A DNA stretch of 64,000 nt from Candidatus Omnitrophota bacterium (GCA_024231025.1 JAAEQW010000111.1:11055-75054); one strand, 5' to 3'; positions 5,194-59,000 are shown, numbered from the stretch's first letter. Numbers and translations: made by a program. Notes: generated by a model from the sequence alone, not told the origin.

Positions 5194-7013
5194 TCTTTAC
5201 CAACCTTAATCAATTCTGCATATATAGAAAAAAATCTTTCCCGCTGCTGCGTTAGCAAAACTCCTTGGTCTCCATCAACTGATGGTTGGATGCTCCCCAT
5301 TTCCGGCACATTTACACTCACAGCCTCAAACATATTACTTTTTTCCAATTTTTCTGTAAAACGTTCAGCCAACTCAACTGCCTTACCGTAGTCGGCAAAA
5401 CAAATCACATCCATATTCACAATGTAATTCTGGTCCAAAACCTCTGATGCTTTTTTCTTACTGGGAGGACGACGCCTACGCGATCTCGAAACAGGCGCAC
5501 TTACAACCTTAGGAGATAGAGTAAATTTTTTAAGTGTAGCATCTATCGGTGTAGCTTTTGCCACTTCCTCTAAGACAGACGCCATATCCAAACGTTTATC
5601 CAAAATATTACGCACTTCCTTTAGGCGATCATCAATATTACGTCGTTGCTGCTTTTTCTGGTCCAACATGGTGATTATCTTTTCAGATTTTTTTACCTCT
5701 AGATCCAAAGTGATTATCGTTCTAGAAAGCAATCGATTGTCTATATAGACCTTGAGCCATCCTAAAAAGGTGAAAGAAAGTATAATTATGCCAATAATTA
5801 TAAGCCCCAATTGTTTTTGTACGGCCCCTCTCTGCTTTTTCATATCCTCGGGCAAAAAGTCGATCGTCTCTTTCCTCTTCTTTACCAAAGGAATACTTAC
5901 GGCAAGCGATGTCGCAGCAGCAAACAGCGGTGTTTCTTCTTGTGAAAAACTGTCTTGAGCGCTCTGTGGCGCTTTCTCAATATTTTGAAAAGGAAAAAGA
6001 GGCTGACAGTCACCGCCGATATCCTTAACTAGAACTGGTGCCAGACCTTTAATTGTTGCAACACCACCAAGAAGAAAGACACTGTCAACACGCGAACCAT
6101 GGGTTTGATCACGATAATAAATTAATGTTCTACGAACCTCATTCGTTATTCTATCAATTTCTGTATTCCAAAGCATTCGAAGCTCTAACAAGTTTATTTG
6201 GCTATCACCGTCGGCGTTCACAGAAGCCTCATATTTCTGACGCATGATTTCTTCAGCCACTTTAACTTTGTCCTTAAGATTAATATCTACTTCTGGAACA
6301 CCTTTATCTTTTATTGTTTTTTCGACCACGCTGGCTTCGACCCCAAGAGCCCCAGCTATATGCGTGATAATATCTTTTAAACCAAATTTAATATTTCTAT
6401 AAAAATGTAATTTTCCCTTCTTAGCAATAGCAATATCTATAGACTCATGACCGATATCAACAAAAGCACTATCCTTATTTAAAAAATCAGATTCTTTATA
6501 AAATAAATTCGCCACGCTATAACAAGTAGGGCTAATTAGCGCTAACCTTACGCCTTCAAAACGATTAAAAATTTCAAAAATATTTTCGATACAGTCATTC
6601 TCGGTTTTAATTATTAAAACTTCATAACGAGCAATCTTACCCACCATAACTTCACCCAATAGCACATATTCAAAAATACTATCAGGCCCAGGCGTAGGAA
6701 CCATCTTCTTTCTTGCCTCTGTAATCGCCGCTATCTCCAACTCTTTCTTGCTCATCTTAGGCAAGTCTATAACTAGAACCGTAACTAACGCAGACGGTAT
6801 GCTTATTGCGATATCAGCATCTTTTAATCTTTTGATTGATATTTTAGAAGAAATTTGATTGAAAAAATCTTCAACATCAATTTTTTTGGATGACTCTTTA
6901 GCAAATGAAAGAGGAAACAAAAAGTTATCCAACAAAACAGTTTTTTGCTTCTGTTCCATTGAAACAACCTTAACTAAACGCGAACCAATATCAATACCTA
7001 TTAATTCTGCCAT
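5190..7013 (-). CDS. pilM: PilM-PilN fusion protein (actin-like ATPase fold + TM + PilN-like domain)
   Basis: N-terminal IGIDIGSRLVKVV (PilM/FtsA-like), an internal TM LGLIIIGIIILSFTFLGWL, then a PilN-like coiled-coil region. Confidence 0.75.
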   Translation of the reverse strand: MAELIGIDIGSRLVKVVSMEQKQKTVLLDNFLFPLSFAKESSKKIDVEDFFNQISSKISIKRLKDADIAISIPSALVTVLVIDLPKMSKKELEIAAITEARKKMVPTPGPDSIFEYVLLGEVMVGKIARYEVLIIKTENDCIENIFEIFNRFEGVRLALISPTCYSVANLFYKESDFLNKDSAFVDIGHESIDIAIAKKGKLHFYRNIKFGLKDIITHIAGALGVEASVVEKTIKDKGVPEVDINLKDKVKVAEEIMRQKYEASVNADGDSQINLLELRMLWNTEIDRITNEVRRTLIYYRDQTHGSRVDSVFLLGGVATIKGLAPVLVKDIGGDCQPLFPFQNIEKAPQSAQDSFSQEETPLFAAATSLAVSIPLVKKRKETIDFLPEDMKKQRGAVQKQLGLIIIGIIILSFTFLGWLKVYIDNRLLSRTIITLDLEVKKSEKIITMLDQKKQQRRNIDDRLKEVRNILDKRLDMASVLEEVAKATPIDATLKKFTLSPKVVSAPVSRSRRRRPPSKKKASEVLDQNYIVNMDVICFADYGKAVELAERFTEKLEKSNMFEAVSVNVPEMGSIQPSVDGDQGVLLTQQRERFFSIYAELIKVGKE

Positions 7014-7026
7014 AATTTTGTATTAA

Positions 7027-8274
7027 TTATCCAACCATCTCCACCATCTGAAACATTGGCATAAAAATTGCAAGCGCTATTCCTCCAACAACAACACCCA
7101 TCACAACAATCATTATCGGCTCAAAAGCAGTAAACAACTTCTTTATTGTAGAGGATACTTCTCGGTCATAATATTCCGCAACCTTAGATGACGTTTTAAC
7201 CAGACTTCCTGACTGCTCACCAATCGCAACCATTCTAGTTACCATTGCCGGAAATTCACCAGTCACCTTTAACGATACGGCAAGTTTTTCACCAACGTTA
7301 ACTGAGTCTCTTGCCTTTGCTATGGCGTTCTCTATTCTACTATTACCTGCCGTTTTTCTCGCTATGTCGAGACAAGTAAGAAGGTTTATCCCCGCCCTAA
7401 AAGACAAAGCGAATGTATGCGCAAATCGTGAAAGAGCCACCTTACGCAACAAATCACCAAACAAAGGTATCTTCAGCTTTACACCGTCTACATTATAGCG
7501 CCCTTTTTCAGTTGCGTTATATGTTTTATATGCAAAAAATAATGCACCGATAGCTCCCATTATAACATACCAATAGTGACGAATGGCATAGCTTACCCCT
7601 AAAACAATTCGTGTCGGCAGTGGCAAATCGCTTCCCAATTGTTCGAATATCGGAGTAAACATCGGAATAACTTTTACAACTAATAGCACCACAACACCAA
7701 CCATTACCACAAAAAGAATTAAAGGATATATCGCCGCTTCTTTCATTTTAGCCTGAAGTTCCATTTGCCATTCTAAAAGAGCAACCAAATCGTCTAGCAC
7801 TTGCGCCAACTTTCCTGTAGCTTCCCCAGCACCAATGATCGCTCTATACAATTGCGAAAAACTATCAGGATGAAACGATAACGCTCCCTCCAACGAATCA
7901 CCGCTTTCGACACGATAGCGTATATCATCCATAACTCTTTGGATTTTATCATCCCCGGCCTCTCGCGCTAAATCTTTCAGTCCTTCTAAAAGCGGAAGTC
8001 CAGCATCTATCAAAGTAGCAAGCTGAAAAGTAATCCGCAACACTTCTCGAGGATGCAAGTTTGACGCCTTTTCTGAGCGCTTAGCCGTCTTAACCCCTTT
8101 TGCAACTTTAAAACTCGTAAGATAATAGCCTAAATTAGATAACTTATCTCCCAACTCAATATCGCTTTCTGCTAGCATATTACCCTTAACCATTTTACCT
8201 TTTTCGTCTCTAACTGTATAAAAATATCTCTTCATGATTTTATAATTCGCGCCAACTATAGGAATCCTGGGCAC
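7027..8274 (-). CDS. pilC: Type IV pilus inner-membrane platform protein PilC (GspF family)
   Basis: Duplicated T2SS-F domains and three TM segments. Confidence 0.85.
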   Translation of the reverse strand: MPRIPIVGANYKIMKRYFYTVRDEKGKMVKGNMLAESDIELGDKLSNLGYYLTSFKVAKGVKTAKRSEKASNLHPREVLRITFQLATLIDAGLPLLEGLKDLAREAGDDKIQRVMDDIRYRVESGDSLEGALSFHPDSFSQLYRAIIGAGEATGKLAQVLDDLVALLEWQMELQAKMKEAAIYPLILFVVMVGVVVLLVVKVIPMFTPIFEQLGSDLPLPTRIVLGVSYAIRHYWYVIMGAIGALFFAYKTYNATEKGRYNVDGVKLKIPLFGDLLRKVALSRFAHTFALSFRAGINLLTCLDIARKTAGNSRIENAIAKARDSVNVGEKLAVSLKVTGEFPAMVTRMVAIGEQSGSLVKTSSKVAEYYDREVSSTIKKLFTAFEPIMIVVMGVVVGGIALAIFMPMFQMVEMVG

Positions 8275-8725
8275 CGCTGCTACTGTTTATGGTCACTTCT
8301 ATCCTGCGTTCAGCTAAAATATTACCACCAGAGTCTATGACTCTTCCTCTGCCTTCAATTATTCTATCATTTCCTGACTTTACAACTCTAAACCTATGCC
8401 ACCCTCGCGAAGAAAAATCACTGTGCCAGCATGGGCTGCGGCTATCTTCATCAACGCAAGGAGCAGAAAGATCATAAAGAGGGTCAAGCGGATCCGAGTA
8501 TGGATCGGGCCACCATTGGGAACCACCAAAATCAGAATTTTCCCTTACTTCATATTTCCCCTCTTCCAAGCCTGCCTGGGCCAAATAGAAAGCTTCCATT
8601 TTCTTTTCCTGCAAAGATCGCACGTCAACCATATCCTCCCACAGAACCATAAGGCTACTGCCTAAAATACCAACAATAATCAACAGAAGAAAAGTTAATA
8701 ATAAAAGTTGCGCCTTTTTAATCAT
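8240..8725 (-). CDS. PilX-like pilus assembly protein (PilX_N domain)
   Basis: Signal anchor MIKKAQLLLLTFLLLIIVG, then AFYLAQAGLEEG resembling the PilX_N motif A.qaAEaGl. Confidence 0.45.
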   Translation of the reverse strand: MIKKAQLLLLTFLLLIIVGILGSSLMVLWEDMVDVRSLQEKKMEAFYLAQAGLEEGKYEVRENSDFGGSQWWPDPYSDPLDPLYDLSAPCVDEDSRSPCWHSDFSSRGWHRFRVVKSGNDRIIEGRGRVIDSGGNILAERRIEVTINSSSGAQDSYSWREL

Positions 8726-8729
8726 CTTG

Positions 8730-9296
8730 TTAATTTCTTGCCCTCACCATTGTTCTAATTACTATGTTCTGGTTGCCATAATCAGCCGGTTTATCCGGTC
8801 GGGCTCTTAAAACTGCGTTAACTCCAATTAAACCATTACCGTAATTAGTAAACATCGCGGTACCATCAAGAAGGTTCGCCGCAAAAACTGCCATATCGGT
8901 ATCGTCGGTTGTGCCACTGCGATAAACTATTGGAGTTTTTTGCTCAGGCACCCACGTTCCACCATCAACATGCCCAGGAACACTGTATATTTCATAACGC
9001 ACATAGGTGTCTCCGCTATTATTATTGTTAGTATCAACACGCATGCGAATCCTTGTTCCATTATCATAAAGGCGTATCCTCCTAAACCCTCCGCCGGAAT
9101 AAGCAAAACGAAGATCGTTAGAAAAAAATTCAACCAACCAACGTCCATCATGCATCACCGCCTGAGTCATAAATTGATCGGCCCATGAGCGCTGAATATT
9201 TATCGCAATGCGCGTAACCGAAACCATCAATAAACCAAAAATCGCTACACCAACAATGGTCTCAATTAAAGTAAAATTCTTATGTAACTTCTTCAT
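8730..9296 (-). CDS. Prepilin-type minor pilin/pseudopilin
   Basis: N-terminus MKKLHKN/FTLIETIVGVAIFGLLMV: class III leader, F+1, E+5 and a hydrophobic helix. Confidence 0.6.
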   Translation of the reverse strand: MKKLHKNFTLIETIVGVAIFGLLMVSVTRIAINIQRSWADQFMTQAVMHDGRWLVEFFSNDLRFAYSGGGFRRIRLYDNGTRIRMRVDTNNNNSGDTYVRYEIYSVPGHVDGGTWVPEQKTPIVYRSGTTDDTDMAVFAANLLDGTAMFTNYGNGLIGVNAVLRARPDKPADYGNQNIVIRTMVRARN

Positions 9297-9322
9297 ATTA
9301 ACTCTTCAGCCGCCTCTATCAA

Positions 9323-9784
9323 TTAAAAATTAGTAATCAAGGTATTAAAAGTTACCGATTTTTCTTGCTTTTGCCCATCCCAATATACCACCACTTCAAT
9401 ATGCGCTACATCTGTAAACTCTACATCAAGAAAAGTCTCCCGATCAGCATAGAAAGGGCAAGTTACATCTACTGAACGCTGAAAATCAGCAAAACCAGCT
9501 ACCGGAGCTTTTAGTTCATCCGGAGGTATCACCAAAGAATAAGGCGGCCCACTCTCGGGAGGATTATTAGCTGTAAACAATGCCGCATAACTATCGGTTG
9601 ACAATTCTTCCATTTTTTCCTGAGCCAAAAAACAGGCAATTGTATACATCCTGTTGCTTCGATCGTAAAGCTGACCCTGATGAAATAAGCGCAACATAAA
9701 AACTGCGATCATCGAGATCAAAGCAATCGAGAGAGCCACCTCAATAAGTGAAATATTTTTTTTCTGCAATTGCATACTATTCAC
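9323..9784 (-). CDS. Prepilin-type minor pilin/pseudopilin
   Basis: N-terminus ...QKKN/ISLIEVALSIALISMIAVFML with E at +5. Confidence 0.5.
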   Translation of the reverse strand: MNSMQLQKKNISLIEVALSIALISMIAVFMLRLFHQGQLYDRSNRMYTIACFLAQEKMEELSTDSYAALFTANNPPESGPPYSLVIPPDELKAPVAGFADFQRSVDVTCPFYADRETFLDVEFTDVAHIEVVVYWDGQKQEKSVTFNTLITNF

Positions 9785-10511
9785 CGGTAATCTTTCTACA
9801 AAACCAAACCACAGGGTCCAAAATTGCCTTAGCAGTTTTTTTCGCCCATTCTTGGCGTCTTATATAATCAGCGATATCCGGACTAAATTCATAATACAAT
9901 TCAACAAAATCACGCCCGACCTTGTTAGTTAATAGGTAATCATCCCTAAACTTGCGTAATATCTGCAGCTGTCTGCAGTTGCAATTTTCTTCATAACAGT
10001 AAGTAGCGGTAGCAATAAAACACCACCCATAACTAGGGTGAAAGATTTTGCGTCGAGCATAACCGGCGCCCTCTCCGGTAGGACCACTCCCCCAACCTGT
10101 ACTATCAGAAGAGCCAAGCAATAAGCGCTCTTCTCTGCTTCCTTGAAGCAATATAACTTCACTGGCAGTTGCCGGATCTATTTCGCTAAATCCACGCGGA
10201 GCATAAAAAGTCATAGTGTCAGGAGCGGTATTAAGATCCACGCCAAGGTTACGAAAAGGCCGAACCATATTGCCTGTTCCATCGGTTATCGAATATCTAT
10301 TATTACTAGTATCGAAATTAACTATGTAATCCTTGCGCTTAGCTGTTGCCATCTCTCCCGCCCACCAAAGATCAGCTAAAAGCGTGTTGGTTTCAGCCTT
10401 AAGGCGTCTGCTATCAACCAAAGAAAAAGACACAACTGCCCCACCGCTGATTATAGCAACGATTGCCATAACAACGATTAATTCAATTAATGTAACCCCT
10501 TTTTTATTCAT
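9777..10511 (-). CDS. Prepilin-type minor pilin with C-terminal Cys-rich CFIATA..Y...LR.FRD.YLL domain
   Basis: N-terminus MNKKG/VTLIELIVVMAIVAI. The C-terminal ~80 aa read CFIATATYCYEENCNCRQLQILRKFRDDYLLTNKVGRDFVELYYEFSPDIADYI. Confidence 0.6.
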   Translation of the reverse strand: MNKKGVTLIELIVVMAIVAIISGGAVVSFSLVDSRRLKAETNTLLADLWWAGEMATAKRKDYIVNFDTSNNRYSITDGTGNMVRPFRNLGVDLNTAPDTMTFYAPRGFSEIDPATASEVILLQGSREERLLLGSSDSTGWGSGPTGEGAGYARRKIFHPSYGWCFIATATYCYEENCNCRQLQILRKFRDDYLLTNKVGRDFVELYYEFSPDIADYIRRQEWAKKTAKAILDPVVWFCRKITGE

Positions 10512-11370: not shown

Positions 11371-12455
11371 GATAAAGACTCCAAATAATCTGCTATTTCG
11401 CGTGATGGAGATACTGCTCCATCAAGATTTGTTTTTCTGTGCATTGTTTGGTAGTTTTGTAAAAAACTATCTATCGCTTTGTTAGAAATTTCAGAAAGCA
11501 TAACGTTTTCGCCTAAACCCTCAATCCGCTCGGTACATTTACGCAGCAATATGCAAGGTTTATCAAGATAATACGCTTCCTCTTGAATGCTGCCCCCATC
11601 AGTGATAATAAACTCAGATTTATTAAGCAAATTTACAAAATGAGCGTGCGAAACTATTTTAAAAAAATAAACATTTTCAATTTCGGCTAGTTGTTCATCC
11701 AGTTTAAACTTTTTTAAACGGTTTATTGTCGGAGGATGCCTAACAAACACAACCGCTCGCTTCGCTGCTATTCTTTTTACCAAATCAATTACAAATTGTA
11801 ATTTTCTCTTAGAAAAAATATTCTCCATTCTATGAACAGTAATCAAGGCAAACTTATCAACTTTAACTCCTAGATCCACTTGCTTTTTAAGACTGTACTG
11901 CAACGATTCATACGAAGTATTACCACCGGTCCTTACAACCTTTTTATCAAGTTTCATTTTTTCTAAATTTTTTGCTGCCCATTCGCAAGGGGCAAAAAGA
12001 ACATCGGAAAATTTCATAGCAATAATACGCGTTATCTCTTCAGGAAACGGTTCAAAGCAATTATAGGAACGAAGCCCCGCTTCCACATGGGCAACTTTTA
12101 TCCCGACACGTTTAGCAAGATACAAAGCAAGAAGGGTTGAAACCGTATCGCCATGGATAAGGCAAATTCCTTTTTGACTGCGAAATACTTTTTCCTTAAC
12201 CCAACGGGAATTTAATCCTTTTAAAAATATTTTAGCAATCCAAAATATTCCTTGAAACAATTTGGAAATGTTCACTCCATTCGAAAGACAAACATCAGGA
12301 TCTTTTAAATTAAATTCTTCCCGCAGATTAGAAGTAAGCAAGGCATGCTGGCCCAAATCAATTAAATTAAACTCCACCCCTCTGGATGTGAGCTCCTGCA
12401 TAATCGGTGCCATTTTAATAAATTGCGCTTTGGTTCCAATTGCAATATGAATCAT
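11361..12455 (-). CDS. UDP-N-acetylglucosamine 2-epimerase-like (WecB family)
   Basis: N-terminal IGTKAQFIKMAPI and the HVEAGLRS motif characteristic of non-hydrolysing UDP-GlcNAc 2-epimerases. Confidence 0.7.
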   Translation of the reverse strand: MIHIAIGTKAQFIKMAPIMQELTSRGVEFNLIDLGQHALLTSNLREEFNLKDPDVCLSNGVNISKLFQGIFWIAKIFLKGLNSRWVKEKVFRSQKGICLIHGDTVSTLLALYLAKRVGIKVAHVEAGLRSYNCFEPFPEEITRIIAMKFSDVLFAPCEWAAKNLEKMKLDKKVVRTGGNTSYESLQYSLKKQVDLGVKVDKFALITVHRMENIFSKRKLQFVIDLVKRIAAKRAVVFVRHPPTINRLKKFKLDEQLAEIENVYFFKIVSHAHFVNLLNKSEFIITDGGSIQEEAYYLDKPCILLRKCTERIEGLGENVMLSEISNKAIDSFLQNYQTMHRKTNLDGAVSPSREIADYLESLSWK

Positions 12456-12570
12456 AGTAAATCCGCCTTTAGATAACTCTCTTTTGATTTAAAAAAACCT
12501 AACTTTTTTTCTTAAAAAGAATAACACCGACATCCAACGAAGTAAACGGTGCCGGACCAAACTGTTTAAC

Positions 12571-12628
12571 CGTAATATCGGGGTCAGACCTTGAAATGAA
12601 CGGAATATCGGGGTCAGACCTTGAAATG
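12571..12628. repeat. Tandem direct repeat, 2 x ~30 bp (aatatcggggtcagaccttgaaatg); second copy is the left inverted repeat of the IS200-like element
   Basis: Read directly in the sequence: identical 25-mers at 12574-12598 and 12604-12628. Confidence 0.9.
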
Positions 12629-13558
12629 TGAAATGAGTTTATCAACATCTTTTTTTACCCGCTTTTCCTTCGCTATAATTATCTGCATGCTCTTGTCAAT
12701 CTTACTAACTGCAGAATAGCTTATGCCAAAAATATCACCAATGGCCTTATTGGTTAAACCACTGTGTCTTTTTAATAAGTATACTGCTACTTTTTTCGCC
12801 AACAACGGCTTTTTAACGGCTTTAAACAATTTGTCTGGTTCTGTTTTATAAACTTTTGCTATGGCTAAGATTATCTCACTAAAATCAACATAACAAAGTA
12901 TCTTTTTATGAGCAAAATCACCTGACTCTATCTCCGGTTTAAAATCCTTTAGTTTATCTAGAATAAACTTTTTACCTCCCAAGAATGATCCGGCATATAT
13001 ATTATCCATAAATGTATCTTTTTTGCCTATTGAACTTAGAATAAACTTTTTATAAGCAGCAGGTTTCATATTTAAATAGCGGTTCAATTCAGGATAATCA
13101 ATATATTTATCGTAACCAAGCTTTGTATAGCCTTTGAAGCTCGACCAGCGGTATTTTTCAGGGCTGTCTACCATTTTAGCCTTTACAGGGTTAAGATGAA
13201 TATAACGTGTGAGCTTTAAAAAATAGCTGTCTTCATCAACCAACAATGATTTAAATCTCCCTTGGAATAGATGACCCGTCTTATTACGTTTCTTATTGTA
13301 ATAAGTAGTATAGGATGTGTTAACATACTGCATTATTCTTGATAAATTAGGTTGCAGTATTTCAAGAAACAGATGATAGTGATTCGACATCAAACAATAT
13401 GCGTAAAGGTTGAATTGGTACTTATCCTTAGCAATAAGCAGATACTCTAAGAACTTTTCAAAGTCATACGTACTAATGAATATTTTCTTGCAGTTATCTC
13501 CCCGACTGGTTATATGGTAGAAACAATTTTCTGCTTGTAAGCGGTAAGGTCTGGCCAT
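12614..13558 (-). CDS. Y1 (HUH) tyrosine transposase-like protein, IS200/RAYT family, with C-terminal DnaA-C-like HTH domain
   Basis: FYHITSRGDNCKKIF (YHV.SRG motif), SNHYHLFLE (HuH) and LTRYIHLNPVKA (catalytic Tyr region). The C-terminus LTNKAIGDIFGISYSAVSK resembles the DnaA C-terminal HTH. The stop codon lies inside the inverted repeat. Confidence 0.75.
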   Translation of the reverse strand: MARPYRLQAENCFYHITSRGDNCKKIFISTYDFEKFLEYLLIAKDKYQFNLYAYCLMSNHYHLFLEILQPNLSRIMQYVNTSYTTYYNKKRNKTGHLFQGRFKSLLVDEDSYFLKLTRYIHLNPVKAKMVDSPEKYRWSSFKGYTKLGYDKYIDYPELNRYLNMKPAAYKKFILSSIGKKDTFMDNIYAGSFLGGKKFILDKLKDFKPEIESGDFAHKKILCYVDFSEIILAIAKVYKTEPDKLFKAVKKPLLAKKVAVYLLKRHSGLTNKAIGDIFGISYSAVSKIDKSMQIIIAKEKRVKKDVDKLISHFKV

Positions 13559-13567
13559 GAAACTATT

Positions 13568-13627
13568 TTAATATGGGTGAGGGGAAAGTCAAACCATTTC
13601 ACATTTCAAGGTCTGACCCTGTTATTG
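13568..13627. repeat. 60-bp direct repeat copy A (right end of IS; left boundary of acyltransferase cassette)
   Basis: About 57/60 identical to 16206-16265. Confidence 0.85.
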
Positions 13628-13701
13628 TTAAAAACTCATCATCTTTTTATGATATAATTAGTTTAAATTAATTTATTAACCGTTACTACTTCTTATTTAA
13701 T

Positions 13702-15177
13702 ATGCTATTTAACACTTTTCAATTTGCCCTATTTTTCATTATTGTTTATAGCCTCTACCTAAAATCGAATCATCGTTGGCAAAACGCAATCCTTCTTGTT
13801 GCCAGTTATATCTTCTACGGGTCCTGGGACTGGCGCTTTTTATCGTTAATTGTCTTATCAACTATTCTTGACTTTTATTGTGGAGCAAAAATATACAATT
13901 CCCCACAACAGTCAAAACGAAAAACGTTTTTAATCTTAAGTATTTTTGGTAATTTAACTATTCTTGGATTTTTTAAGTATTTCAACTTTTTTGCATCAAA
14001 TTTACAAACTCTACTCTATCATTTTAACGTTGCCATCCAACCACGGTTTTTAAATATACTTCTTCCTGTGGGAATATCGTTTTATACATTTCAAACAATG
14101 AGTTATACAATTGATATCTACCGCAAGAAGCTTGAGCCAACAACAAAGTTTTTTGATTTTGCTTTATTTGTTGCATTCTTCCCGCAACTTGTTGCTGGTC
14201 CTATTGAACGGGCTAAACATCTTCTGCCACAAATACTTTCACCGCGAAAAGTAACTTTAGATAAATTTTATCAAGGCCTTTACTTGATATTCTGGGGACT
14301 GTTTATGAAAACTTTTGTCGCTGATAACTTAGCTCAAATAGTTGACCCAGTTTTCACCTCATCCGTCCGTTTAACCGGAATAAGAGTTCTCTTTGCTTTA
14401 TACGCTTTTGCCTTTCAGATTTTCTGTGACTTTGCCGGATATTCAAATATTGCCCGCGGTTTAGGTAAAGTCATGGGCTTTGATATCATGGTTAACTTTA
14501 ATTTGCCTTACCTTGCAACTAACCCAAGGGAATTTTGGCAGCGTTGGCATATAAGTTTATCAACCTGGTTAAAAGATTATCTTTACATTCCTCTTGGCGG
14601 CAGTAAAGGTAGTAAATTAAAAACATATCGCAACTTAATAATTACTATGCTGCTCGGCGGCCTCTGGCACGGAGCAGCTTGGACATTTATTCTTTGGGGA
14701 GCTTACCAAGGAACAATTCTTATAATTCACCGGTTATTTAGCCCTTTACTAGCAAAAATACCACAACCAAAAAGTGCATTAGCACAAAAAGCCTGGTTTG
14801 CTTTACGCGTTGTCTTTTTCTTTCATGTAACATGTTTAGGCTGGTTAATTTTCCGTGCCGAATCATTAGCACAAATAGGACAAATGATTCATGCTTTAGT
14901 ATTTAGTTTTCAACTAATGCCACCAATAGCAGCACAATTGACCCCATCAGCATATCTTTTTGCTATTGTCTTCTGGCTAAAGATCCACATCAAAGATCTA
15001 CCTTTCCACACCGCTGTTCTCTTAATTATTCAGTGGTATCAATATAAGAAAAATGATTTACTAGCAGTATTTAACTCTAGTACTTTTATTAAAGTTATTT
15101 TTTACTACACATGTTTTCTATCGATATTCTTTTTTGGCGTAGCAAAAAAAATACAGTTTATTTATTTTCAATTTTAA
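13702..15177 (+). CDS. MBOAT-family membrane-bound O-acyltransferase (AlgI/DltB-like)
   Basis: Polytopic protein with FWQRWHISLSTWLKDYLYIPLGGS, the MBOAT signature with the catalytic His. Confidence 0.85.
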   Translation: MLFNTFQFALFFIIVYSLYLKSNHRWQNAILLVASYIFYGSWDWRFLSLIVLSTILDFYCGAKIYNSPQQSKRKTFLILSIFGNLTILGFFKYFNFFASNLQTLLYHFNVAIQPRFLNILLPVGISFYTFQTMSYTIDIYRKKLEPTTKFFDFALFVAFFPQLVAGPIERAKHLLPQILSPRKVTLDKFYQGLYLIFWGLFMKTFVADNLAQIVDPVFTSSVRLTGIRVLFALYAFAFQIFCDFAGYSNIARGLGKVMGFDIMVNFNLPYLATNPREFWQRWHISLSTWLKDYLYIPLGGSKGSKLKTYRNLIITMLLGGLWHGAAWTFILWGAYQGTILIIHRLFSPLLAKIPQPKSALAQKAWFALRVVFFFHVTCLGWLIFRAESLAQIGQMIHALVFSFQLMPPIAAQLTPSAYLFAIVFWLKIHIKDLPFHTAVLLIIQWYQYKKNDLLAVFNSSTFIKVIFYYTCFLSIFFFGVAKKIQFIYFQF

Positions 15178-15180
15178 GTT

Positions 15181-16137
15181 ATGAAATTATTCAGAAAACT
15201 CATTAAACCGATCGCCATTTACCTTCTACCAACGATTGCAATAATTACATTTTTTGAAGTCGGTTTAAGAAAAGTTTTAAACACATACAATAAACGAAAA
15301 ATCGTCTTTGAAAAAAATATCGCTGATTACCAAATTCTTGTTCTCGGCAGTTCCCACGCTTTCCGCGGCATTAACCCAGCGCTGTTTAGACATAAAGGAT
15401 TTAACCTTGCTAATGCCAGCCAAACTTTATACTACGACTTAGAAATAGTAAAAAAATATATTGATAGAATGCCTGCCCTAAAGATGGTTTTAATCAATGT
15501 TGACTTTCTTTCCTTTGAGTTTGATTTAGATAAATCACAAGAATACTGGCGCTGTTTTTTCTATGAAAAACATCTTAACATCCCTCTTGAAAGCAACAAC
15601 CATCGCTTTGATATTAAACGATTTAGCCTTGCTGATATGTACGGAAGGAAAAGAAGCTTGGGATTTTTCCTTAAGGGATTTAATGTTGATTTAGCCAAAT
15701 CTGTTGCTGATGACGGGTTTATGGCAAAAGACATCACGCATAATGACAGAAATTTAATTAGTACCTTTTCCGGCAAGAAACGTGCTGATTATCATCGTCA
15801 ATTTTGTCTCGGTATCACTGACCCTTCAGAAAACATCGCTTACTTAGAAGAGCTTATTAAATTACTAAAAGACCACGACGTCACCCCGGTAATAATGACA
15901 ATTCCAACCTTTATAACTTATTATCAAAATTTTAGCGAAGGAGAACGGGCATTTATCACAAATACCGCCAAGGCAATAGGAAAAAAATATTCAGTAAACT
16001 ACTTTGACTATTTAAAAGACCCTCGCTTTATTATTAGTGATTTTTATGATAATGATCACTTATGTCATCACGGTGCAAATAAATTCAGCAGAATTATCAA
16101 TCAAGAAATCCTAATCCCTCTTTTCAGGAAAGAATAA
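15181..16137 (+). CDS. DltD/AlgJ-like partner protein of the MBOAT (SGNH-like)
   Basis: Signal anchor, then VLGSSHAF. Start is translationally coupled to the MBOAT stop (4 nt apart). Confidence 0.4.
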   Translation: MKLFRKLIKPIAIYLLPTIAIITFFEVGLRKVLNTYNKRKIVFEKNIADYQILVLGSSHAFRGINPALFRHKGFNLANASQTLYYDLEIVKKYIDRMPALKMVLINVDFLSFEFDLDKSQEYWRCFFYEKHLNIPLESNNHRFDIKRFSLADMYGRKRSLGFFLKGFNVDLAKSVADDGFMAKDITHNDRNLISTFSGKKRADYHRQFCLGITDPSENIAYLEELIKLLKDHDVTPVIMTIPTFITYYQNFSEGERAFITNTAKAIGKKYSVNYFDYLKDPRFIISDFYDNDHLCHHGANKFSRIINQEILIPLFRKE

Positions 16138-16180
16138 AATCTATTTATAACTTCCTGAAACACTTTCCATGGCGGAGAAA

Positions 16181-16265
16181 TATCGAGGTCAGACCTCAGA
16201 AATACTCTAATATGGGTAAGGAGAAAGTCAAACCATTTCACATTTCAAGGTCTGACCCTGTTATT
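16181..16265. repeat. REP-like hairpin plus 60-bp direct repeat copy B
   Basis: ggtcagacctcagaaat (16186-16202) pairs with atttcaaggtctgacc (16240-16255). 16206-16265 repeats 13568-13627. Confidence 0.85.
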
Positions 16266-16984
16266 GGTTTTCTGGCCTCAATATATAGAGAACCGGATAT
16301 TTCGCGTATCAAAGGAATTGATTCCAAGCAATAACCGACTTTTTTCATAAATGGAACTAAAATTTTCGGGATACTGGGGTGTAAGAAATCAAAGTTCTTA
16401 ATCTTAATACTCTTAAAACCATGTTGCTTAAGTTTATCAAGCAACTTCCAGCGAATGAAAGCTGTTTCATCAGGGGAACTATGTGCCATTTTCTTAATAA
16501 ATGGAACATTTTTTTCTACCGCAATTTGAGGATTAAGCATATTTGGTTCAGCAAAAAAGATTGCCCCATCCGGTTTTAGTACCCGATAAAATTCCTCTAA
16601 TGCAGCATCGAGATTTAAATGATGCAATACTGAATTGCCGACAACCACATCAAAAGTAGCACTATTTAAGGCGCTTTTATAGGCATTGCTGCAAACAAAA
16701 TTAATATTATCACATGCATTATTTTCTTTAGCAATTTTAAGCAACTCTAAAGAAATATCTATCGCAATAATTTCTGCCTGTTTTTCTTTAAGCTCCGAAG
16801 CAAGCGAAGATTCTCCGCATCCAACCTCAAGAACCAACGCATTATTTCCTATTCCAAAGGCAAGCATAGACGCTCTTCTCCTCCAACGCTCCTTGCCGGC
16901 TGGCGTCTGCCAATACCAAATCCTATCGGCCGTAGCAGCTAACTTTTTGCCATGGACCATTTCATTGCGAATTCGTTGATCCAT
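16238..16984 (-). CDS. Class I SAM-dependent methyltransferase
   Basis: LEVGCGESSLASEL (motif I) and VVVGNSVLHHL. The last 8 codons and the stop come from the REP-like repeat. Confidence 0.75.
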   Translation of the reverse strand: MDQRIRNEMVHGKKLAATADRIWYWQTPAGKERWRRRASMLAFGIGNNALVLEVGCGESSLASELKEKQAEIIAIDISLELLKIAKENNACDNINFVCSNAYKSALNSATFDVVVGNSVLHHLNLDAALEEFYRVLKPDGAIFFAEPNMLNPQIAVEKNVPFIKKMAHSSPDETAFIRWKLLDKLKQHGFKSIKIKNFDFLHPSIPKILVPFMKKVGYCLESIPLIREISGSLYIEARKPITGSDLEM

Positions 16985-16992
16985 ACTTCTCC

Positions 16993-18081
16993 TTAGCCGT
17001 CAATATTAACCCTGGAAATTTCATCCATAATTTTAAAAATATCATAACTATAATCCCACTGCGGAAAATGCGCCTTAAACTTATCAACATTTGAGATATA
17101 CCAAATATGATCGCCCCTGCGAGCTTGGTTAGAATAGGTCACATTCGCTTTTTTATTAAATGCCTTTTCAAAATAAGCAATCGCCTCATTCATTGAAACA
17201 TTCGAATGCCGGCTTCCACCAATATTATAGACTTCACCACAACGCGGTTTATTGTAGAAATGCCAAAAAGCATTGACGCAATCAAAAGAATGAATGTTGT
17301 CTCTTACTTGCTTGGCTTTATAACCAAAGATGTTATATTTTTTAGAAGTAGCAATGCACTTAGCCAAATAAGCAAGAAAACCATGCAATTGCGCCCCTTG
17401 ATGGGTTGGACCAGTAAGACAACCCCCTCTAAAGGATGCTGTTTTAAGATTAAAATACTTACCGTATTCCTGAACTAAAATATCCGCCGCGAGTTTTGAC
17501 GCGCCAAATAAACTATGCAGACAATTGTCAACATCCATGCCCTCATCGACTCCGCAGTAAAAAGGATGCTCCTTACTTAGCTCCCAACGAGTCTCTAGTT
17601 CATCAAAGGCAAGCTGATTAGGTCGATCACCATAAACCTTATTAGTAGAAGTAAATATAAATACTGCCTGAGGGCAATAATTACGAAAGCTCTCTAGCAA
17701 ATTCAAAGTTCCATTAGCATTAATTTCAAAATCAGTAAACGGTTCACGCGCCGCCCAATCATGTGATGGTTGCGAGGCGGTATGAATTATAAGTTCAAAA
17801 TTGTTTTCTCTAAAAATCCGATCGATCGCCTCTTTGTTACGAATATCAATGTCTAAATGGTAGTATTTATCTTTATATTTTTTGCTTAAGTATTCCTGAT
17901 TCGGTCTTGTGCTAGCCTCAGAACCAAAAAAATATGCCCGCATATCATTATCAATACCAATTACTTTAAAATCCCTCTCGATGAAAAATTCTACAGCACT
18001 AGAACCAATAAGTCCTGCCGAGCCAGTAATTAACGCAACCTTCTTATTCATTAATGAATTTAATTTTCCACAGTGCCTCAC
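16993..18081 (-). CDS. NAD-dependent sugar epimerase/dehydratase (extended SDR); likely start at [10 protein letters not shown] (~18051)
   Basis: Rossmann motif [10 protein letters not shown] and an SDR-like body. Confidence 0.75.
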
Positions 18082-56023: not shown

Positions 56024-59000
56024 TTAAGAGATGTTTAAGATTTCGTCTAGATTTCTTATTACCTTAATACTAATGATCTGGAAAGTGAATCCTTTAAAAT
56101 CATCAAGATCAATAGTAACTCCCTGAGAAGGAATGTTGATTTTGCCATCAATAATTTGCATACCCGCACCGCTTAAATCCAAGTCGATTCCGCCGGGTCC
56201 TGAGGCGCCTGATTCACCCGAACCGCCTGAATCCGCACCCACTGCGCGAGTGTAAGGAGGCTTTCCTTGTGCTTTCCTAATGTCTCTTATTAATTGTTCG
56301 TCTAGATCAACGCCCTTTGTCTCTTTTAGAAGTTGTGCAATCTGATAAAAGAGAGCACGGATCATGTAGTGATCAATGTTGGCTTCAAAATAACTCCTTC
56401 GGCCGGAATCAATATACTCGCGCTCCTTATCCGCAAGCCACTGTGCACCGATCATGTCTCCCGAATGAATTATATTATCAATATGATCCATAATATACTT
56501 GCCCTTAGTTGTCTTTTTATATCGCTCAGTCAATTCATGCCCAAGCGAAAATGGATTATCAAAGACACTTTCATCAATTGCAATGAAATCATCCCCGGCT
56601 ACGCCGAAAAACCCCTTACCCCCTACATCTGTTATAATGATGTGTTTTGGATCGTCGACAGGACGATGGCTCGGTGTCGCATGTAAGGCTCCTATTAATT
56701 CATTACGTTTTTGAACAAGGTCGTTATCTAATTTATTTAATTCATCCCTATCGCTGTCGGAAAATGTGCCATCTGTTTTTTTCGCTTGCAAAGTTTTTAT
56801 CCTCTCGTTAATCACCGCTATATCGGATGATATTTCACCTCGAGATCGATGTTTTACCTCGTCAGGACGAGGAAGATTAAGATAAGCGCTTTCCGCAAAC
56901 TCTGCGGTTCTTTGGTCTTTTGCTGGATCATTACTATTCGTACCATAAATTTGGGTTAACCAATTAGCCAATTCAACATGAAAGTGATTTAGCATTTGGT
57001 CCATGAAAGCCTTCTCCTCACCATCCGGAAGAAGCTTAGCTAAATCCTTTAATTCTTGATATTTCGCAATTATTTCCTCTGGCACCGCGCGATAAGAATT
57101 ACTTTCATCAAAGGTGATTTTCTCACCAGTCTCAAGGTGAGTGATCGTCCCAATTAGTCGACCGTTGACTACTTTAAGATTCTCAATACCACTGAACTTG
57201 CCCATGAAATCTATGACTCCTGCCTTTGGACTCAATTCTATTTTTTGTTTTTCTTGACGGTTAGTGACTGCATCGTTGTCGTCACCGCTAAGAGATATAT
57301 AGTCAGTCGGGAAGGGGCTCTCCCCCATATTATCTTCGGCAGATGTTTTACGGAATCCACCGTCAGTAATCCCTAAGGCGTCTCGAATTTTTTTAATTAT
57401 TTCGACATCGGGCCAAAAAATTGTTAAATCTTGATATTTTATCATCTTTATCTCGGCCTCATGCAGCACACCAATAGTAACCGGACCCAAAGGTTTCCAC
57501 TTTTTTACATTGCCTTGATCGTCAAGCTCTTCAATGGAAAAAGGTCCCTTATTTCCAGACACTTCTCTTATAAGATCAACCATCACTGACCCCACATTGC
57601 CCAAATCATCTGGCATCGGAATAGAATAACCAAAAGAGAAAGTTCCTCTATTGGCAGAAGCGATAATTATTGGTAAATCTTTGATTTCGCCGTTTAATAA
57701 ACTTAAGAGAAGGTGGTTATAAAACTTTATTGCTGAATCAGTAGAAAAGCATTTATCCAAAACAGCCACGGTATCGGAAAGCATTCCTTTATGTTTGCCC
57801 TTTAGCTTTTGAGCACGAGCGATAAAAGCATCGGCTAGCTTTTCTGCGCTAATCGTATTTCTAAAACCACCACCAAATACCAGCTCCCCCTTCAGACCGT
57901 GTCCGTTAAACCAAACAATATTATTGTTGGGATTAAATGATAATCGTTTAATTTTTTTAAGAAAACCTTTTCTCTCCTTTTTTCCCTTAAAAGTCGCGAT
58001 AAGATTACCCCCATGTTCTGCTACTAAATTAACAATCTCATCAACTTCAAAACCATCTTCACTGTTAGAGCCAGTGATTAGAGAAGATCCTTTTTTTATG
58101 ATTTCCTTATTAAGATATTTCTCACTCGTCCGCAACTGAACAATAATCGGCACTATCTTTTCAATGTATTCCTCTTTTACATCAAGATTGAAACGTTCTA
58201 GAATATTATAAATTGCTCGGGCAAGAAAAACTTTATGAACCTGATCAAGACCTCTCTCGCTCATTGCCTGATTGAGCGCCCAACTATTATAGGCAGTTCG
58301 AAAATCATTAGGCACCAAGGCCTTATTAAAGATAGCCTGAGCTTGGCTAGCAAGATACAGAATGAGCGGATCCATCTGCTCTGCCTCTTCATCTTCTAAT
58401 TCATTGGTGATCCCGGTAAGAATAATGGCAAGCTCTTCTCGATTGTCATTTTTATTCTGCTCTAAAGCTCTAAGCAAACCAGGCACGACGCTACCGCCCT
58501 TAGCAACCAATGCTTGACCAATTTTAAGAGATACATCTGGTCTCTTCACATCTAAAAAACTAAGCATAAGCGGCAAAGCGTCATCTCCAATCTCAACTAA
58601 TGTTTCTATGATGTCGGTTCCAATGACCACAGGGCTTTCCTTATATCTGATAAAATCTGCAACAAAATTTAGTATAGTCTTCTTTTCATGCTGACTAAGC
58701 CAGGAACCCGCTTTAGAATATATTCGACTCAAAGCAATAATTCCACCATAAGAATCTTTTTCTGAACTTTGCAAAAATGTCGGCAATAAATGTTTTTTTG
58801 CCACAGCATTAAAATCTCCTCTATCAAGCTTCATCGAAAGATTGGCCAAGGCAATTGCCGCTTCCTTGCGTAATATTCCATAATTAGCTTCATTTTGATA
58901 AAGGTCAAAGAGTAAGGCAATCACCTCGTCCGTAGCAATATCCATTTGCCCCAAAGCCTTAACCGCACTACGGCGTACATATAGCTTCACACTACCTGCG

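Follow-up and report, generated by a model that had tools for sequence, protein, structure and literature searches.

The described elements closest to the locus studied here are the TIRtrons with their TIRYT transposases (Di Nocera, De Gregorio & Rocco 2013, PMC3733652), whose inverted-repeat ends (TIRs) carry the motif GGGGWSAS. In later classifications, Group 1 RAYTs are the equivalent of TIRYTs (Bertels et al. 2017, PMC5581495), and TnpA_REP subclass 2.1, of which subclass 2.1.2 is a subgroup of Bac_DnaA_C-bearing proteins, probably corresponds to them (Quentin et al. 2018, PMC6006769). We analyzed a stretch of 64,000 nucleotides from a Candidatus Omnitrophota bacterium (the window) and compared one locus in it with these systems. 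The locus agrees with a TIRtron in having a RAYT-like Y1 HUH protein (about 315 aa) that ends in a Bac_DnaA_C/HTH domain, long flanking TIRs with GGGGWSAS, of which one overlaps the 3' end of the gene, and one or two divergent paralogs per genome (here P0010 as the second). TIRs of its family, as seen in other genomes, are likewise moderate in number and also stand singly, as dimers or in clusters. No essential difference was seen. The letter-perfect TIR of about 24 nt across phyla, the bipartite TIR, the precise gene-deleted mini-elements and the Omnitrophota host described below were not found in the accounts of TIRtrons and TIRYTs consulted. Taken as a whole, the locus is likely a canonical TIRtron and a gene-less derivative of it, standing on either side of a resident pair of acyltransferase genes.

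Transposase of the locus

The transposase gene (12614..13558, minus strand) encodes 314 aa and is assigned by Pfam, NCBIfam, motifs and fold to the TIRYTs (Group 1 RAYT, TnpA_REP subclass 2.1.2). The protein consists of an N-terminal Y1 HUH nuclease and a C-terminal helix-turn-helix (HTH) domain resembling domain IV of DnaA. Pfam Y1_Tnp matches with E = 2.8e-12, NCBIfam REP_Tyr_transpos with E = 1.4e-20 (73.6 bits, just below the cutoff of 80), and Pfam Bac_DnaA_C with 23.4 bits, which is below the threshold of 31.5; most of the 120 closest homologs are annotated with PF08299. H60-Y61-H62 and the catalytic Y119 (RYIHLNP) are invariant in 53 homologs. We compared an AlphaFold2 model (pLDDT 80.6) with known structures by Foldseek, using target-normalised TM-scores. 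Among PDB entries, the E. coli RAYT-REP complex 4ER8 ranks first (TM-score 0.72), and the C-terminal domain of the model superposes on DnaA domain IV (3PVP, 1J1V) with a TM-score of 0.85 and an rmsd of 1.8. A second TIRYT paralog in the same MAG, P0010, is 63% identical. The first-pass annotation had proposed an IS200-like Y1 transposase with a DnaA_C-like tail. The Y1 HUH domain was confirmed by HMM, and the tail falls below the Pfam threshold but is recovered at the level of the fold; the label IS200 needs correcting, the protein being nearer to RAYT/TnpA_REP.

Repeats and ends of the TIRtron unit

The core GGGTCAGACCTTGAAATG occurs in four exact copies in the window (12581+, 12611+, 13602- and 16241-) against 0.03 expected (0/100 shuffles), so that the repeats noticed at first reading are real. 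A degenerate fifth copy, GAGGTCAGACC, lies at 16185 on the plus strand, and no further copies were found in the 64 kb. Dispersal of the repeat in the same genome is reported for some TIRtrons only; here, all five copies are confined to 3.7 kb, between 12.57 and 16.27 kb.

The TIRs have a common layout, with an outer core GGGGTCAGACC and two inner TGAAATG heptamers. In the right-end TIR (12601..12635, plus strand), these occupy 12610-12620 and 12622-12635, respectively. An extra outer tandem copy with the core GGGGTCAGACC and a single TGAAATG heptamer lies beside it (12571..12598, plus strand); 27 of 30 positions are identical between 12571-12600 and 12601-12630, in agreement with the 30-bp tandem unit noted earlier, and tandem right-end copies likewise occur in L022, L028, L030 and L058. 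The left-end, upstream TIR (13595..13627, minus strand) is the matching inverted arm: 12604-12635 and 13595-13626 are 94% complementary over 32 nt, and the outer boundary is sharp at 13627. The right-end TIR contains the stop codon TGA of the transposase gene (12614-12616, in the repeat core) and encodes its C-terminal ..SHFKV, with ISHFKV being the commonest C-terminal end among the homologs. Just inside the left TIR is the best promoter-like site of the region (13565..13592, minus strand; TTGACT-16-TAAAAT, 10/12 matches), with 6 nt between its -10 hexamer and the ATG, which would leave the transposase mRNA nearly leaderless. In homologous elements a TTGACA box also follows the upstream TIR. 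The cores are 991 bp apart here and 989-996 bp apart in all complete units elsewhere. The segment 12571-13627 is a canonical TIRtron, with one gene between TIRs of about 32 nt, and the element is an ordinary member of a known tyrosine-transposase family with inverted-repeat ends.

The TIR core GGGGTCAG fits the motif GGGGWSAS of the TIRtrons in PMC3733652. By inspection of the sequence, the repeats and their immediate surroundings contain no GTAG tag. The folding of single TIRs does not exceed that of shuffled sequence (z from -1.0 to +0.95), and the palindrome GGTCAGACC has a 1-nt centre, so no hairpin is possible. Because single TIRs do not fold alone, the repeats are TIRs and not REP hairpins; with this correction, the first proposal of a transposase between "REP-like" inverted repeats is in essence right. 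REPtrons with REP/BIME or REPIN (E. coli RAYT/TnpA_REP; Nunvar 2010, Ton-Hoang 2012, Messing 2012, PDB 4ER8) share with the locus the catalytic fold and motifs, a single- or low-copy gene, and flanking inverted copies of a short repeat that is dispersed, for the present family as seen in other genomes, and often forms inverted dimers. They differ in that the locus has no GTAG-tagged hairpin, an unfolded single repeat, an extra DnaA-IV domain and repeat numbers that appear lower, tens versus hundreds. A classical REPtron is ruled out by the missing GTAG and the lack of a self-folding palindrome.

The locus could also be read as two copies, of which one has decayed, of an ordinary insertion sequence of the IS200/IS605 family with its subterminal hairpins. 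The Y1 HUH single-strand transposase fold is common to both, the Pfam domain is named "Transposase IS200 like", and the TnpA structures of IS608, ISDra2 and IS200 are significant fold matches to the model; nevertheless, we consider this very improbable, as the best fold and HMM matches are RAYT/TnpA_REP and not IS200 TnpA, and the DnaA-IV domain together with dispersed solo and dimer repeats are reported features of RAYTs and TIRYTs. Moreover, IS200/IS605 elements such as IS608 and ISDra2 lack TIRs, bear different subterminal hairpins at the left and at the right end, often include tnpB, and move as whole units in multiple identical copies, whereas tnpB is absent here. Such an insertion sequence was rejected on its ends, which are mutually inverted repeats with no significant hairpins of their own.

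Distribution of the repeats in other genomes

The exact 18-mer of the repeat was found in MAGs of many phyla, in 110 stretches altogether, so the repeat is a multi-copy family, as had been suspected. About 85% of the copies continue with TGAA past the selected word, which indicates homology and not chance. The copies take the form of gene-bearing units of about 1.03 kb, solo copies, tandems and inverted dimers. A TIRYT gene is nearby in only 20 of the 110 stretches, and several MAGs have 4-9 stretches with the 18-mer each, most of them without a TIRYT gene close by. Loci picked via the protein have these TIRs too, or variants of them. The TIR of about 24 nt (G-GGGTCAGACC-T-TGAAATG-TGAA) is letter-perfect across phyla, and the proteins diverge to 35-65% identity. 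Long ORFs are ended by TIRs about 10 times more often than by random windows.

Alignment columns that separate the proteins of TGAAATG-type from those of CGGAAAA-type elements make up 3 of 140 in the HUH domain and 17 of 75 in the HTH domain, including the recognition-helix residues 281 and 285, a comparison that is confounded by phylogeny and in which the CGGAAAA type is represented by one DNA example (L119). A bipartite TIR, whose invariant core would serve the HUH domain and whose heptamers, specific to the paralog, would be read by the DnaA-IV domain, is suggested by these sequences and is more likely than the reading, taken up below, in which the element carries cargo. By analogy with TnpA_REP on REPs, the protein would bind its own TIRs and nick and rejoin DNA there, with the HTH domain reading the heptamers and the HUH domain working on or close to the invariant core. 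In this way, intergenic DNA and gene ends may have received TIR monomers, dimers and mini-elements.

Miniature element at the methyltransferase gene

The right-hand repeat belongs to an 88-bp MITE-like derivative (16179..16266, minus strand), which joins a degenerate arm of the right end (16179-16196) to 60 nt copied from the left end (16207-16266). It keeps both termini and the promoter region of the left end, and the whole ORF is deleted. The direct repeat, 13568-13627 versus 16207-16266, is identical at 57 of 60 positions; the identity had been recognized before with its second copy placed one position off, at 16206-16265, where only 22 of 60 positions agree. A weaker likeness (86%) extends to 81 nt (13547-13627 versus 16186-16266), and the match to the left end breaks off abruptly at the edge of the element, at ...GTTATTG in both copies. 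The inverted partial copy does form a hairpin as described, its arm 16179-16196 pairing with 16248-16265 (18 nt, 83%), with a folding energy of -12 kcal/mol and z = -1.7 to -2.3. The right-hand repeat does bracket the gene pair, but it is more than a bracket, being a full miniature element that has both termini. Equivalent mini-elements of a left end plus a right end are found in L001, L092 and L109.

A class I SAM methyltransferase gene (16238..16984, minus strand; Methyltransf_11, 2e-22) runs into this element. Its last 8 codons and stop (16238-16264, ITGSDLEM*) are repeat sequence, and nine homologs all end at ...YIEARK(R), 9 residues earlier. Judging from these homologs, the native end of the methyltransferase is replaced, and the protein has gained 9 extra residues, PITGSDLEM, after the mini-element landed on its stop codon. 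That the repeats donate the stop codons of both the transposase and the methyltransferase genes, as first annotated, is evident in the sequence. In the proposed history, one unit would have inserted ahead of the MBOAT gene, between divergent genes, and the other between convergent genes, where it hit the stop codon of the methyltransferase gene.

Origin of the gene pair between the elements

The two genes between the elements encode an MBOAT-family membrane O-acyltransferase of AlgI/DltB type (13702..15177, plus strand, 491 aa; Pfam MBOAT, 4.9e-31) and a DltD/DUF1574/SGNH-like partner (15181..16137, plus strand, 318 aa). Matches to Pfam MBOAT and to the DltD/SGNH family bear out the original description of the pair. 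From 770 to 29122, in about 28 kb of minus-strand genes, no other gene on the plus strand is plausible, just as was claimed, and both copies of the element lie exactly on the two flanks of this sole strand-inverted pair. Independent insertion would account for this placement only through the larger intergenic gaps at strand switches.

Alternatively, the block 12571-16266 might form a single unit with TIRs as its bounds, and the Group 1 RAYT/TIRYT in it might carry the surface-glycan O-acyltransferase module as cargo, or invert or delete it via the repeats. If so, a transposase class regarded as domesticated would for the first time be seen to move or switch a cassette of adaptive genes. The TIRs at 12604-12635 and 16234-16265 would then bound a single 3.7-kb unit, with the transposase and the acyltransferase pair as passengers, inserted within the glycan operon at the end of the methyltransferase gene. 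These outer TIRs are indeed a proper, inward-facing inverted pair (32 nt, 94%) enclosing 12604-16265, the sole plus-strand pair lies between them, the right boundary disrupts the methyltransferase stop, and a preprint links subclass 2.1 TnpA_REP genes physically to diversifying procA genes in picocyanobacteria. We nevertheless think it improbable, in either its composite or its switching form. Every complete element elsewhere is about 1.03 kb long, with cores 989-996 bp apart and no passenger, and what stands at the right end is a whole mini-element that has a second terminus of its own. No second instance of the composite unit and no MBOAT gene was found at any of the 110 TIR-bearing stretches. 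Where close homologs of the MBOAT do occur, with an ALGX or GDSL-type partner behind each of them, the glycan clusters around them are free of the TIR. The G+C content of the cassette equals that of its flanks, and the plus-strand GC skews of its genes at third codon positions (GC3 skews, -0.27 and -0.54) are like that of every neighbouring gene, a match also compatible with an old insertion or with a donor of the same strand bias. The earlier proposal that the element mobilised an O-acylation cassette is therefore not supported; the canonical units elsewhere, with their fixed core spacing of about 991 bp, have no cargo, and the TIRs adjoining the cassette face away from it.

Independently inserted copies might instead serve now as a recombination substrate, in which case RecA-dependent or slippage deletion of 13628-16266 between the 60-81-nt direct repeats would make O-acylation present or absent within the population. 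The likeness of the repeats (57/60, and 86% over 81 nt) and their position around exactly two genes and the mini-element would fit, yet 60 nt with three mismatches is a poor RecA substrate, and the pair is no different from any other dispersed repeat pair. We found no empty-site or deletion allele among the available relatives, which are too distant for this purpose, the closest being only 55-59% identical in the methyltransferase and different in gene order. Such deletion is doubtful in our view.

In the preferred reading of a TIRtron and its gene-less derivative, the MBOAT and DltD-like genes form a common, resident two-component module for glycan O-acylation that was probably not brought in by the elements. 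Homologs of the MBOAT protein number in the thousands at 60-68% identity. It scores 173.8 bits against NCBIfam LTA_dltB, below the cutoff of 375, and its translation contains the conserved His-containing motif RWHISLSTWLKDYLYIPLGG. The order of an MBOAT gene and, immediately after it, a gene for a membrane-anchored SGNH/DltD-like protein, in a glycan biosynthesis cluster, is that of AlgI-AlgJ/AlgX, DltB-DltD, PatA-PatB and WssH-WssI; the locus differs from these in having no DltA/DltC or alginate genes and a partner from the large, uncharacterised DUF1574/DltD-like family. The partner of the window alone has no Pfam match, and a profile comparison gives a weak match (E = 0.2) to the DltD structure 6O93, so it is assigned only at the level of the family, whose members match DUF1574 (22 of 34), DltD (17 of 34), Lipase_GDSL_2 (14 of 34) and ALGX (2 of 34). 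The partner is anchored in the membrane at its N terminus and shows the motifs GSSH and DxxH; G56, S58 and H293 are invariant in the family, and D290 is kept in at least 90% of the sequences.

The element is a TIRtron

The repeats claimed by the first-pass annotation are all present in the window. The core of the terminal inverted repeat (TIR), GGGTCAGACCTTGAAATG, occurs at 12581+, 12611+, 13602- and 16241-, compared with an expectation of 0.03 for the 64-kb window. The fifth copy, at 16185+, is degenerate (GAGGTCAGACC), and no further core copies were found in the 64-kb window. Positions 12571-12600 and 12601-12630 form a tandem pair with 27/30 matches, and the transposase gene is enclosed by inverted arms of 32 nt (12604-12635 and 13595-13626) that are 94% complementary. 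The 60-nt direct repeat was also recovered, with 57/60 identical nucleotides between 13568-13627 and 16207-16266, but the coordinates first proposed for its second copy were one base too far left. Weaker similarity lengthens it to 81 nt. Its identity stops sharply at ...GTTATTG in both copies, which indicates a discrete element boundary. The repeats also supply the ends of genes: the transposase stop codon (12614-12616) is inside the repeat core, repeat sequence makes up the final eight codons of the methyltransferase and its stop (16238-16264), and TGA can be read in several frames on both strands of the TIR.

No RNA family was matched when 12000-17000 was scanned with Rfam, and a single TIR folded no better than shuffled sequence (z -1.0 to +0.95). 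The window repeat starts with GGGGTCAG, which fits GGGGWSAS, a sequence common to the TIRs of many TIRtrons (Di Nocera et al., PMC3733652). Based on this fit and on the failure of the single repeat to fold above shuffled sequence, the element at 12571-13627 is a TIRtron, that is, a TIRYT gene with flanking TIRs, and neither an IS200 element nor a classical REPtron. The earlier reading, an IS200-like transposase with REP-like repeats, was therefore correct about the transposase and the repeats and imprecise about the family; the 'transposase' should be annotated as a TIRYT/Group 1 RAYT. Y1 proteins with a Bac_DnaA_C/HTH tail were placed in TnpA_REP subgroup 2.1.2, and the TIRYTs are probably equivalent to subclass 2.1 (Quentin et al. 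2018, PMC6006769), and a picocyanobacterial preprint equates subclass 2.1 with the Group 1 RAYTs of Bertels et al. 2017. These are the largest and most widespread RAYT group, and their flanking 16-mers reach about 12 copies per replicon (PMC5581495). According to Di Nocera et al. (PMC3733652), some TIRs overlap the 5' or 3' end of the gene, and some belong to families of moderate abundance that comprise monomers, dimers and clusters. The window element is like these TIRtrons in carrying GGGGWSAS in its TIRs and in the overlap of a TIR with the transposase 3' end.

The transposase protein

The ORF at 12614-13558(-) encodes 314 aa. Of the two domains proposed for it, Y1_Tnp was detected by Pfam (E = 2.8e-12) and Bac_DnaA_C stayed below threshold. 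The NCBIfam 'REP-associated tyrosine transposase' model matched with E = 1.4e-20 at 73.6 bits, against a cutoff of 80. Alignment of 53 homologs showed no variation in the HUH motif (H60-Y61-H62) or at the catalytic Tyr119 of RYIHLNP. A PDB sequence search with the transposase gave no match, and fold and profile methods were required. The AlphaFold2 model built from the 53-homolog alignment (mean pLDDT 80.6) best matches 4ER8, the E. coli REP-associated tyrosine transposase with its REP hairpin, followed by the TnpA proteins of IS608, ISDra2 and IS200. The C-terminal ~90 residues of the model fit the DnaA DNA-binding domain on a DnaA box (3PVP, 1J1V), with a target-normalised TM-score of 0.85 and an rmsd of 1.8 Å. 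The family is very large (7,047/8,000 scored candidates at E ≤ 0.001) and strikingly uniform in length, 313-316 aa, and the MAG of the window holds a second paralog (P0010) with 63% identity to the window transposase.

The best promoter-like site of the region by consensus match, TTGACT-16-TAAAAT (13592-13565), adjoins the upstream TIR on its inner side and ends 6 nt ahead of the transposase ATG; homologous elements also have a TTGACA box after the upstream TIR. At the start of the gene (13547-13558, minus strand, ATGGCCAGACCT), the family-conserved codons M-A-R-P read GGCCAGACCT, which is 9/10 identical to the TIR core GGTCAGACCT, and similar sequences are seen in two loci from other genomes (L119, L121). 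This core-like start may be a chance product of the conserved MARP, an autoregulatory site, or a microhomology for the ORF deletion that gives mini-elements.

The TIR family in other genomes

We scanned 185,579 species-representative genomes, a set that excludes the genome of the window itself, and found an exact 18-mer of the TIR in 110 stretches; by our own estimate, about 17 are expected by chance in 596 Gb. The host MAGs are labelled Omnitrophota, Elusimicrobia, Desulfovibrio, Spirochaetes, Vicinamibacterales, Clostridia, WOR-3, Peregrinibacteria, Planctomycetales, Aerophobetes and others, and several MAGs have 4-9 separate stretches each. About 85% of the copies have G before and TGAA(A/T) after the selected word, and the TIR consensus is G-GGGTCAGACC-T-TGAAATG-TGAAAT. 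Only 20/110 stretches contain a TIRYT gene; the remaining ones carry solo or tandem copies, or dimers that face inward at a distance of 41-150 nt. The core-to-core spacing is 991 bp in the window and 989-996 bp in nine other complete elements.

The TIRYT proteins of these loci are only 35-63% identical to that of the window, and the best DNA match of the transposase gene among the species-representative genomes is about 68% identical, whereas the TIR core is identical. Beside this divergence the core is unchanged, so the DNA site is constrained far more strongly than the TIRYT gene. The letter-perfect, phylum-spanning conservation of a ~24-nt bipartite TIR appears to be a modestly new point.

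Outside the right-end TIR, several MAGs have short tandem repeats with a unit of 8-9 nt (L014 ~6465-6488, L086 ~2016-2040, L052 ~276-300 and L070 ~213-237), the units seen being gtattaac x3, gtgttatc x3, ggatatagc x2-3 and (a)ttaatagc x2. The window counterpart at the right end is the 30-nt tandem duplication of the TIR (12571-12630). Such right-end repeats could be traces of recurrent cycles of nicking and rejoining, or of slippage. Dense TIR clusters were also noted: L001 (1600-5560) has at least nine copies in 4 kb, with 89-nt mini-elements spaced by segments of 1.1-1.6 kb and no intact TIRYT gene detected, and L039, L092 and L101 are clustered as well; the four loci are from two Omnitrophota-type MAGs.

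A bipartite TIR and two protein domains

As an independent check, we examined three loci picked via the protein and not via the motif. Both TIRs are exact in a WOR-3 element; one from Thermodesulfobacteriota carries an identical A-to-C change in each arm; and the element of the homolog P0005 keeps GGGTCAGACC, with two CGGAAAA heptamers replacing the two TGAAATG. The TIR is therefore bipartite, with an invariant outer core and two inner heptamers that vary by type. The TIR dictates the last codons of the protein, most commonly ISHFKV-stop. The ending FSVFRV-stop goes with the CGGAAAA type and is also that of the second paralog in the MAG of the window. Each RAYT has its own repeat, and two paralogs with two TIR types fit this rule.

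The columns that cleanly separate the two protein types number 3/140 in the HUH domain and 17/75 in the HTH domain, the latter including positions 250, 252, 281 and 285 around the recognition helix. This correlation, which is confounded with phylogeny, points to a division of labour in which the heptamers would be the target of the DnaA-IV domain and the invariant core that of the conserved HUH domain. The TIR architecture would then map naturally onto the two protein domains, and the indication that the DnaA-IV domain reads the heptamers is again modestly new. With a ~24-nt TIR invariant across phyla, this locus and related ones are a clean substrate for testing.

The inner part of the TIR has the consensus TGTGAAAT (12622-12635 and 13595-13608), with the reverse complement ATTTCACA. 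The latter agrees with the DnaA-box consensus TTWTNCACA over its TNCACA part, and a DnaA domain-IV fold is present in the protein. We keep this resemblance as a lead only, because the match is post hoc and absent from the CGGAAAA-type TIR (L119). In the comparison by Quentin et al. (PMC6006769), which covered the GGGGWSAS part only, no similarity to DnaA boxes was seen.

Mini-elements and the methyltransferase tail

In minus-strand order, 16266-16179 contains a perfect left TIR and then the promoter region with the -10 mutated to TAGAGT. At the position of the ATG it joins directly to AGGTCTGACCTCGATATT, which is the right-end core plus outer flank (the real right end has ..AGGTCTGACCCCGATATT), so that the entire ORF is precisely absent. 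The 88-bp block 16179-16266 is therefore a non-autonomous derivative of the TIRYT element. Its arms can pair in a predicted fold (10 + 5 bp, -12 kcal/mol, z = -1.7 to -2.3). Derivatives of 89 nt joining left and right ends occur in L001 and L092 and retain TTGACA, ATGGCT and the codons ..IISHFKV-stop, and L109 has such copies of ~150 nt. These gene-deleted derivatives are the MITE/REPIN-like behaviour expected of the family; their precise form is modestly new, and such natural mini-elements define the minimal ends.

Nine homologs of the methyltransferase (16238-16984(-); 49-59% identity, 239-242 aa) all end in ...YIEARK(R), and the window protein runs on past that end with PITGSDLEM. Judging from these homologs, the mini-element probably inserted at the native stop codon and replaced it with one of its own, and the methyltransferase should be annotated as carrying a repeat-derived 9-residue tail. 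Among the fetched loci, 18-20% of TIR copies end an ORF of at least 150 codons, compared with 2% of random windows; about half of these ORFs are TIRYT genes and the rest host genes. A metagenome scan with the methyltransferase for an empty site returned just two distant loci (49% and 30% identity). The closest homologs (55-59%) keep the order GT2 - NAD-epimerase - methyltransferase, followed by a PMT_2 gene, and are too divergent to serve as empty sites.

The O-acyltransferase pair and its flanking elements

The gene at 13702-15177 encodes an MBOAT protein (Pfam E = 4.9e-31). The partner ORF after it (15181-16137(+)) has no Pfam match of its own, and a PDB sequence search with the partner protein alone gave none either; fold and profile methods were required. 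Members of its family (~3,400 cluster representatives) match DUF1574 (22/34), DltD (17/34), Lipase_GDSL_2 (14/34) and ALGX (2/34) and conserve Gly-x-Ser and Asp-x-x-His, so the initial description as a DltD/AlgJ-like partner holds at family level. Genes for glycan synthesis surround the pair (UDP-GlcNAc 2-epimerase, LPG_synthase_TM-like, NAD-epimerase and GT2). Close homologs of the MBOAT protein (65-68% identity) are likewise in glycan clusters, immediately followed by an ALGX or GDSL-type protein, and no TIR was found near them.

The G+C of the cassette (0.32-0.39) equals that of its flanks. Its codon-usage distance is raised, but to the same degree as in the other plus-strand genes (29-34 kb); the rise is an effect of the strand, and foreign origin on this ground was rejected. 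The plus-strand third-position GC skew is negative for every gene of the window in either orientation, including the two cassette genes (-0.27, -0.54). From this shared sign, the pair seems to have resided on its present strand for long enough that it has taken on the local mutational skew. There is no sign of recent import, and a recent inversion between inverted TIR copies was rejected as the cause of the orientation.

The first-pass annotation regarded the pair as a mobilised cassette, which our results do not support. Canonical units have no passenger gene, neither MBOAT nor partner occurs in the 110 TIR stretches, and the TIRs adjoining the cassette (13602- and 16185+) point away from it, which places the cassette between two elements and not inside one. 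Two less likely readings are a 3.7-kb composite with the outer TIRs, which face inward (12604-12635 and 16234-16265), as its ends, and deletion of the cassette through the 60-81-nt direct repeats. A cargo role would link RAYT-type enzymes to surface-glycan variation; current evidence is not in its favour. Two separate insertions flanking a resident pair are the most economical explanation: a canonical TIRtron would have inserted into the divergent gap upstream of the MBOAT gene, and the mini-element into the convergent gap, onto the methyltransferase stop, with the O-acyltransferase pair in between already resident.

The element may also contribute to cassette expression, as the -35 hexamer of a promoter-like site starts inside the outer end of the left TIR. 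This site, TTGTTA-17-TATGAT (13625-13653 (+)), precedes the MBOAT start by 49 nt. It was recognised by consensus alone, and the region shows no excess of such sites over shuffled sequence (19 versus 15.3). Between the cassette and the mini-element, a 17-nt inverted repeat (16122-16160; TTTCAGGAAAGAATAAA / TTTATAACTTCCTGAAA, 82% complementary) spans the partner stop codon and may be a terminator-like hairpin.

Other observations

In L115, the locus of the closest MBOAT homolog (P0122), an MBOAT + GDSL pair (8864-10045 (+)) opposes its left-hand neighbours, with an unrelated transposase-like gene (HTH_23, faint rve_3) after it. Mobile-element genes beside strand-switched MBOAT pairs may be a recurring pattern. 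Synteny with this locus, where the divergent pair is near an LPG_synthase_TM gene and a methyltransferase, was rejected because its flanking proteins are not orthologs of those in the window. A series of small proteins with N-terminal methylation motifs like those of type IV pilins (for instance N_methyl, E = 1.2e-07, in 9777-10511 (-)) is encoded at 8240-10511 (-), immediately downstream of the window's glycan genes, and the 244-aa protein there ends in the Cys-rich tail GWCFIATATYCYEENCNCRQLQILRKFRDDYL. The right end of the window is occupied by a giant ORF of 2,635 aa (56024-63931 (-)).
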